From a virus (Duplodnaviria; Heunggongvirae; Uroviricota; Caudoviricetes), in IMG/VR virus record IMGVR_UViG_2740892218_000005: a stretch of 9,537 nucleotides of DNA. One strand, given 5' to 3'. The translations under genes were made by a program, and so were the position numbers. Positions 8,206-8,343 of this stretch are shown in pieces (the first letter of the stretch is position 1; each line of letters begins with the position of its first letter). The notes beneath the pieces are model-generated. The model made no database searches. It was given only the letters and a program-made list of their open reading frames with translations, and was not told where the DNA came from.

Positions 8206-8343
8206 ATGTCATCAAAGAACAGAACCCGCAGAACAACAGCCCTCAACATCCGATTTCCAAACCAGATGATTGAACAAATTAACATCGCTTTTGGTCAGAA
8301 AGGTTCAGGAATTTTTTCAGCGTGGATTATTGAAGTCTGCTGA
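8206..8343 (+). CDS. Small ribbon-helix-helix (CopG/Arc/MetJ-like) DNA-binding protein, putative; 45 aa
   Basis: ATG 8206 to TGA 8341-8343: MSSKNRTRRTTALNIRFPNQMIEQINIAFGQKGSGIFSAWIIEVC. A basic N-terminus, an alternating-polarity beta-strand (TALNIRF), helix (PNQMIEQINIAF), Gly-containing turn (GQKGSG) and second helix are the typical RHH pattern. Weak GGGG Shine-Dalgarno 7 nt upstream. Below the 60-aa cutoff of the supplied ORF track. Opposite strand to the late genes. Confidence 0.45.
   Translation: MSSKNRTRRTTALNIRFPNQMIEQINIAFGQKGSGIFSAWIIEVC

Follow-up and report, generated by a model that had tools for sequence, protein, structure and literature searches.

A 45-codon reading frame beside cos in a lambda-like prophage: a nonsense-truncated allele of the YlcI/YnfO (DUF3950) family

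Introduction

Next to the cohesive-end site of a lambda-like prophage, on the strand opposite to the late genes, lies an open reading frame (ORF) of only 45 codons. The locus raises the question of whether such a short frame is a gene at all and, if so, to which family it belongs, why it ends where it does and what its product might do. The DNA analysed here, called the window throughout, is a stretch of 9,537 nucleotides from a Caudoviricetes record (IMGVR_UViG_2740892218_000005). A first-pass annotation of it had presented the ORF as one of a size easily left unannotated, coding for a ribbon-helix-helix (RHH)-like protein and perhaps shortened at a mosaic junction in comparison with a longer counterpart in lambda.

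The answer favoured in the present study, with a probability of roughly 0.6, is that the YlcI/YnfO (DUF3950) family is represented here by an allele which a nonsense mutation has cut short and which is probably decaying. The intact members of the family would be small, prophage-expressed DNA-binding regulators of the RHH type, and the copy in the window is likely impaired. The individual steps leading to this answer differ in their strength: the data show the membership in the family, the purifying selection on its core, the nonsense mutation and a surplus of private missense changes, whereas the RHH fold, the binding to DNA, the regulatory role and the loss of function are inferred. The former are described before the fold and the function are considered.

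Results

The locus and its neighbours

The window covers, in reverse orientation, that end of a lambda-like prophage at which the packaging genes lie (Table 1). The ORF, starting with ATG and terminated by TGA, is divergent from the gene for the Nu1-type small terminase subunit, with cos positioned between the two at a distance of about 215 bp from cosN to the start codon, and it is convergent with the gene of the PerC family. The first-pass annotation was thus right as to the ORF itself, its 45 codons, its strand opposite to Nu1 and the large terminase, and its place between cos and the accessory gene. The same layout is found in the lambda-like PhiR11_1, in the O26 strain 11368 and in the strain 377323_2f, and across more than 230 fetched lambda-type loci the start codon lies at a fixed distance of approximately 200-215 bp from cosN. 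Another ORF, antisense at 8109-8285, was rejected as a true gene since its length is not conserved.

Table 1 Features of the window around the 45-codon ORF
Feature	Coordinates	Strand	Basis
Large terminase	5362-7287	-	ORF list
Nu1-type small terminase subunit	7262-7807	-	ORF list; annotations of matching records
cosN region	~7977-7998	.	Alignment to lambda-type sequence
8-bp inverted repeat, GATCAATT-N19-AATTGATC	8103-8137	.	Repeat search
45-codon ORF, truncated YlcI/YnfO (DUF3950) allele, MSSKNRTRRTTALNIRFPNQMIEQINIAFGQKGSGIFSAWIIEVC*	8206-8343	+	ORF list, Pfam, phrog_949, RefSeq
Premature stop TGA (codon 46)	8341-8343	+	DNA alignment with O26 and lambda-like loci; private-substitution table
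Remnant of the 3' region (equivalent to codons 47-74 in the 74-aa allele)	8344-8430	+	Alignments, tail types
Perfect 11-bp hairpin, AAAAAGCGACT / AGTCGCTTTTT	8449-8475	.	Repeat search; RNA fold
PerC-family transcriptional activator (Pch-like), accessory gene	8512-8826	-	Pfam PerC (E 1.3e-42); RefSeq annotation of related loci
Rz/Rz1-type lysis gene	from ~9330	-	

With regard to signals of expression, a promoter scan of the window found no consensus sigma-70 promoter upstream of the ORF, and a GGGG element resembling a Shine-Dalgarno sequence precedes the ATG by 7 nt. The inverted repeat, which precedes the start codon by 70-100 bp and is shared by the lambda-type and O26 sequences, is, speculatively, a candidate operator or RNA hairpin. 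Past the other end of the ORF, the perfect hairpin (RNA fold -15 kcal/mol, z -3.5), flanked by runs of A and T, looks like a bidirectional terminator that would serve both the ORF and the convergent PerC gene; a simple terminator scan did not call it. A scan of the region 7700-9100 against Rfam gave nothing near a gathering score. As far as transcription of a relative is concerned, the ybcW-ylcI pair of Escherichia coli K-12 is included in a list of convergent excludons, with detection in 50% or more of the RNA-seq samples analysed (PMC12288877).

Two further features of the region should be mentioned. The cosN of the window reads CGCCTT at 7985-7990, where the lambda type has AGGTCG, and the cohesive end, GGGCGGAAGGCG in the window versus GGGCGGCGACCT in lambda, differs at 5 of its 12 positions; the variant 19-mer is present in 11 of the 368 fetched loci (the lambda type in about 239) and occurs together with truncated as well as full-length DUF3950 alleles. 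An AT-rich tandem repeat with a unit of 19 bp, AATATAAATAACAAACAAA, occupies 8913-8991 (4.2 copies, 95% matches), in the interval that separates PerC from the Rz-type lysis gene.

Membership in the YlcI/YnfO (DUF3950) family

The 45-aa product is a member of the Pfam family PF13132 (DUF3950), which it matches with 41.1 bits against a gathering cutoff of 25 (E 1.6e-10), its residues 21-45 covering the positions 1-25 of the 30 in the profile; the last five positions are absent because of the premature stop. It belongs likewise to the PHROG family phrog_949 (E 1.1e-22), where the residues 1-45 correspond to the profile positions 1-45 of 61. With the NCBIfam model NF041551 (YlcI_YnfO_N), the protein from the window reaches 17.9 bits, i.e. 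less than the curated cutoff of 30, whereas its full-length relatives score 34.5-37.6 bits, and it is for this reason that the PGAP name of the protein is "DUF3950 domain-containing protein" and not "YlcI/YnfO family protein". The shortfall is due to the truncation together with private substitutions, not to a different ancestry.

The protein search retrieved 387 close cluster representatives, nearly all of them named YlcI/YnfO or DUF3950. An identical 45-aa protein exists in RefSeq (WP_059222288.1), having been annotated by PGAP in the E. coli record NZ_CP039404, the locus of which is 98.8% identical to the window and has the same core sequence. In E. coli O26:H11 str. 11368 the locus is approximately 90% identical, with the same PerC neighbour, and encodes a YlcI/YnfO family protein of 74 residues. 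The position agrees as well: in lambdoid prophages including lambda, the family gene is found between the lysis/moron region and the first of the packaging genes, on the strand opposite to the late operon, as in the window.

The ORF is therefore not new but an already catalogued member of the YlcI/YnfO (DUF3950) family that is easily overlooked. The remark in the first-pass annotation that it may be missed in annotations proved correct for lambda, where nothing is annotated at the orthologous position of the reference record NC_001416, but not for NZ_CP039404, where PGAP does call the ORF; newer lambda-like records annotate a hypothetical protein of 64 residues there (e.g. PhiR11_1, XSB41463.1). 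In the literature, YlcI, YnfO and DUF3950 were met as name mentions only, and a functional experiment on any member was not found.

It should be pointed out that a scan of GTDB genomes for the family returned mainly contamination by lambda control DNA in unrelated taxa and, being dominated by it, says nothing on the host range. Apparent members from Staphylococcus, Streptomyces, Pseudomonas and Bacillus-like genomes and from various MAGs (the loci L010-L044 and many "ena" proteins) come from contigs about 3.5 kb long or from the ends of contigs, and their sequences are either lambda-identical or error-ridden. These apparent members look like lambda control-DNA contamination and not a real host range.

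A conserved core and exchangeable tails

About 350 occurrences of the gene were collected from viral contigs and genomes, yielding 57 distinct full-length alleles of the codons 1-50. Over these codons, the mean pS is 0.43 and the mean pN 0.048, i.e. a pN/pS of 0.11, and the variable sites are distributed over the three codon positions as 17:14:40. In essentially every locus of good quality the reading frame is unbroken, the upstream non-coding DNA diverges more (15-18%) than the ORF itself, and homologues sharing 35-50% identity are present in other genomic settings. The family is a real protein-coding gene with purifying selection on its core, and two of the checks that had been proposed for the ORF, i.e. 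the conservation of the frame among related phages and the substitution rates across homologues, speak for it.

Past codon ~50 the picture is a different one. At least nine discrete types of tail can be distinguished (TSEKRAY..., CSEKRVS..., STERSGM..., INEKYSQ..., ATDATHL..., AADIKYA..., TADRKML..., STEKRIK... and others), all of them diverging after CRRRL and tracking the downstream module, which may be a DUF1398/YbcV-like gene, PerC, a lipoprotein-like ORF or directly Rz/Rz1. In the tail of the 74-aa type the variation is exclusively nonsynonymous. Since the tails change with the module while the core is conserved, it is the core of about 50 residues that constitutes the functional and selected unit, the tail being a read-through into recombined neighbouring sequence.

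The cause of the 45-codon length

The ORF of the window is shorter than its counterparts, which have 64 residues in lambda and 74 in the O26 prophages with the same PerC neighbour. All 57 full-length alleles have an arginine codon (AGA or CGN; Arg46) at the place corresponding to 8341-8343, and a single A>T change at 8341 turned AGA into TGA, the O26 sequence TGC AGA AGA AGA reading TGC TGA AGA AGA in the window. Downstream of this stop, the window is still ~96% identical to the intact 74-aa alleles (7 differences in 192).

According to the first-pass annotation, the similarity to lambda would end near 8340, and the ORF might have been cut short at a mosaic junction there. The first part was borne out, since the megablast matches to lambda-like phages end at the query positions 541-554, equivalent to 8340-8353 of the window. 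As to the second, the ORF is indeed shorter than the 64 residues of lambda, but the cause is the nonsense change at 8341: the junction with the lambda-type sequence is placed at about 8353, four codons past the stop and directly behind codon 49-50 (CRRRL), and the downstream sequence continues as in the intact alleles. Truncation by the mosaic junction was accordingly rejected.

A 35-aa ORF at 8357-8464 on the plus strand, MKNILNLYPTKTNTTRAP..., corresponds to what was once the tail in the 74-aa allele, read in another frame. Through a frameshift, the database variant P0041 passes into this frame, as would fit a tail for which no single frame is maintained.

Signs of decay in the window allele

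When compared with the 57 full-length alleles, the window exhibits eight private nucleotide changes, namely seven missense (T12A, R13L, L29F, D30G, N36I, V41I and A44V), one nonsense (R46*) and no synonymous. The probability that seven out of seven changes are nonsynonymous is ~1.5e-4 at the family omega of 0.11 and ~0.18 under neutrality, both values, calculated with ~29 synonymous and 106 nonsynonymous sites, being rough and ignoring the transition bias. As the simplest reading, these private changes point to relaxed constraint after or around the truncation. The stop deletes RRRL, which forms the conserved end of the predicted helix B, and two of the substitutions, T12A and R13L, fall in the putative DNA-reading strand; with RRRL lost and seven private missense changes accumulated, the gene of the window is most likely impaired or inactive.

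The all-nonsynonymous pattern would, however, also fit adaptive change. The 45-aa form might then be a functional, possibly neo-functionalised minimal protein, in which the substitutions would have altered, for example, the specificity for DNA or for a partner, and the stop would have dropped a dispensable tail. Positive selection could produce seven private amino-acid changes out of seven, the tail of the 74-aa type past codon 50 is without purifying selection, the truncated allele, with minor variants (M21I, S3T/I41N), is met in several contigs that are independent of each other, and one distant homologue, P0195, has just 44 residues. This explanation is nevertheless regarded as unlikely, for what the stop removes is not only a tail but also the residues 46-49, a part of the core that distant homologues keep as AC-[RK]-x-[KR]-L; the seven-out-of-seven count does not depart significantly from neutrality; T12A and R13L affect the strand that, in Arc-type proteins, reads the DNA; and the allele is rare, its cluster comprising 11 member sequences versus 300-400 in the large full-length clusters. 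Decay after the nonsense mutation thus remains the preferred reading of the window allele.

The ribbon-helix-helix question

The members of the RHH superfamily are obligate dimers, which insert an intermolecular two-stranded beta ribbon into the major groove of DNA. Among 37 diverse members of the present family scanned against PHROG, 20 match a HicB-like family (phrog_497; best E 8.3e-5) and several match families of Arc-like repressors (E 6.8e-4 and 0.029), while Pfam RHH_6 was hit by one member (E 0.092). In hhalign, the core profile aligned with the Arc repressor of phage P22 at P 0.0019 and with the N-terminal domain of NikR at P 0.016, in the register of strand, helix A and helix B, although these values come from 14 comparisons with single sequences and are weak once those 14 are allowed for; none of six non-RHH controls was better than P 0.045.

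The alignment with Arc is gapless: NIRFP stands opposite to NLRWP of Arc (the strand and the helix cap), followed by helix A and a Gly-containing loop, and NFSAW... pairs with the N-R-S-E start of helix B. Two residues, R16 and F37, do not vary within the family, and S38, where helix B is predicted to begin, is almost invariant. The core of ~50 residues can thus be read, tentatively, as an Arc/MetJ-type pattern made up of a basic N-terminal arm and NIRFP, then helix A and, past a Gly loop, helix B formed by NFSAWVIEACRRRL.

The structure predictions that had been suggested as a check did not yield a confident beta-alpha-alpha fold. The AlphaFold monomers of a 77-aa relative and of the 45-aa protein from the window are of low confidence (pLDDT 65 and 64, respectively), with helices at residues 19-32 and from 34/37 onward (to 44+) and without a beta strand, an absence that is expected if the strand forms only in the dimer. 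Among the top fold matches, which are non-significant, RHH proteins recur, namely the ParD-type antitoxins, MazE7, KacA and MatP. The searches of PDB sequences with family profiles gave nothing at E <= 10, and a protein search with a diverse core profile retrieved close family members only and no bridge to the annotated RHH families.

Taken together, the weak but consistent Arc-like and HicB-like matches and the canonical register lend moderate support to the RHH likeness put forward in the first-pass annotation, with the low-confidence monomer models on the other side, and the fold of the family is probably RHH.

Homologues in satellites and other genomic contexts

The profile search of the full library revealed, amid many noisy reads of lambda control DNA, genuine homologues at the above-mentioned 35-50% identity. 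Two complete genes, coding for 120 and 129 residues, combine the DUF3950 domain with the DNA-binding domain from the N-terminus of a small terminase (45.4 bits for the positions 1-53 of Terminase_2 versus a cutoff of 26.1; DNA-binding domains of TerS in PDB, E 1.6e-4), the rest of TerS being absent. Both are located in PICI-like islands, between int/alpA and the primase operon (L125:5001-5363, also in L126-L129, and L130:4714-5103), where the fusion gene is preceded by a stand-alone DUF3950 gene of 60 aa. These satellite genes are divergent from the main replication/packaging operon across 146 bp, and this intergenic region upstream of the 60-aa gene (L125:4445-4589) contains two 12-bp TGGTACGTACCA palindromes that look like putative operators. 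The fusion protein may be a decoy of the cos/pac site or a regulator in the conflict between satellite and helper; such a region of the islands has been called a zone of DNA-interactive and immunity functions (preprint 10.1101/2022.07.18.500453).

One of these satellite islands is integrated directly beside terS of a prophage that has a YlcI/YnfO gene of its own. This gene, coding for 66 residues (L125:8576-8776), lies between the lysis genes and a packaging module of the HNH + Terminase_2 type, 41 bp from the start of HNH, so that the antisense position between the lysis end and the packaging start is kept even with a terminase of a non-lambda type. Further homologues were seen after cdtABC, beside an integrase and, in a non-phage chromosomal setting, beside the cytochrome bd genes.

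In lambda (L131, 45900-48502) and in Qin-type prophages (L099, L287), a series of genes on the anti-late strand begins with that of DUF3950 and continues with a DUF1398/YbcV-like gene and then, in lambda, with bor. The DUF1398/YbcV-like gene of lambda, lambdap78, is named "head protein" in NC_001416, a label that looks like a misnomer. A database protein, P0152, is a fusion of DUF3950 and DUF1398.

Discussion

Possible function of the intact members

Under the favoured explanation, the intact members of the family would dimerise through the N-terminal strand, and the dimer would bind DNA and act as a small transcriptional regulator, i.e. a repressor or an autoregulator, whose expression from the prophage would not depend on late transcription. 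As to the tail at the C-terminus, it would be a sequence that happens to come from the adjacent mosaic module. The contexts other than that of lambda, i.e. the satellites, the HNH prophage, the neighbourhoods of cdtABC and of integrase, favour a small DNA-binding regulator, and a connection with packaging or with interference between phages and satellites would be compatible with them too. Regulation of the neighbouring moron, which the first-pass annotation had suggested, is unlikely in the form of a dedicated regulator of PerC, since the position of the gene is the same whichever of the many modules lies downstream.

The position of the gene suggests, as it had in the first-pass annotation with regard to packaging control, an alternative, in which the family would act in DNA packaging or cos recognition, as an accessory or interference factor of terminase or cos, rather than in transcription. 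The fixed distance from cosN, the stretch common with lambda-like phages, which reaches from Nu1 across cos as far as codon 50, the same place beside the packaging module of the HNH-containing prophage and the satellite fusion to a terminase DNA-binding domain would all agree with it. In the HNH-type phage, however, the gene abuts HNH rather than cos, the homologues near cdtABC, integrase and the cytochrome bd genes are far from any packaging genes, and the late transcription that makes the terminase would oppose the expression of a gene lying antisense to the late operon. Moreover, despite the extensive genetics of lambda cos, we know of no requirement for the DUF3950 ORF there. A packaging role in place of a transcriptional one is hence judged quite improbable.

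The broader proposal that the family is an overlooked lambdoid DNA-binding factor tied to the packaging module, which would mark or guard cos and terminase or mediate phage-satellite interference, is suggested because the satellites fuse DUF3950 to the small-terminase domain within an immunity zone. It is offered as a long shot; if it were true, the truncated and heavily substituted allele of the window might be a by-product of the conflict between phages and satellites.

The likeness to RHH antitoxins of the HicB and ParD classes could indicate an orphan antitoxin or an anti-defence decoy directed against a toxin encoded elsewhere. An RHH antitoxin gene would be expected to have an adjacent, co-transcribed toxin gene, but there is no co-directional partner ORF in the window, where, as had been stated in the first-pass annotation, no toxin-like ORF is adjacent and the next gene is that of the PerC family, convergent and past the hairpin. 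A toxin partner was also not found among the surveyed downstream contexts (DUF1398, PerC, Rz/Rz1 and others); the similarity is limited to the generic DNA-binding RHH domain and the variable tails lack a conserved toxin-binding region, all of which makes this possibility very unlikely.

Finally, an incidental ORF in a cos flank conserved for a function at the DNA or RNA level, as its shortness, the missing consensus promoter and the conserved block beside cos might suggest, is hardly tenable in view of the pN/pS of 0.11, variation concentrated at third codon positions, the intact frame, the protein homologues at 35-50% identity in unrelated DNA contexts and the more diverged upstream non-coding DNA.

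What remains preferred, then, is a family of putative small RHH-type regulators with a probably damaged representative in the window. For the window itself these results carry little weight, as they concern a known and annotated family member that is probably broken here. The family, with its strongly conserved core of ~50 aa (pN/pS near 0.1) in most lambda-type prophages of E. coli, is conserved yet absent from the lambda reference annotation, and the value of describing it is mainly descriptive. The Arc-like RHH assignment provides a concrete hypothesis, i.e. DNA binding and autoregulation, whereas the fusion of DUF3950 and terminase in satellites represents a separate lead for research on phage-satellite interference.

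Comparison with known systems

With regard to antitoxins, the C-terminal RHH domain of the HicB type (phrog_497) is the commonest remote profile match of the family, and ParD, MazE7 and KacA are its top fold matches of the RHH type. Unlike the antitoxins of the HicB/ParD type, the family lacks a toxin gene, the N-terminal domain of HicB and a conserved tail for toxin binding.

The Arc and Mnt repressors of P22, belonging to the Arc/MetJ superfamily, have likewise ~50 residues and a basic N-terminal arm, and the order of elements predicted for the family, i.e. N-[IL]-R-[FW]-P, helix A, Gly loop and a Ser-containing start of helix B, resembles theirs. Arc and Mnt are encoded in the immI region and control ant, whereas the gene of the present family is found by cos, and its homology to them is statistically weak.

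In lambda, the ORF complementary to ~48110-48304 (64 aa) occupies the orthologous position, about 200 bp from cosN, and lambda and the window have in common the DNA that extends from Nu1 across cos as far as codon ~50. The lambda ORF has, however, a tail (TSEKRAYTSIQSDDG / ...KSDEE) unlike that of the window, and it is followed by a ybcW-like gene, a ybcV-like/DUF1398 gene and bor, in contrast to PerC in the window.

The closest known counterparts are YlcI of the DLP12 prophage and YnfO of the Qin prophage of E. coli K-12, which are of the same family and share 78-84% identity with the window protein over its 45 residues. Their place is that of the window, between the lysis/moron genes and the homologue of Nu1 and on the opposite strand. 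In comparison with the 64-77 residues in YlcI/YnfO, the window allele ends at codon 46, and it is set apart from them further by its seven private substitutions.
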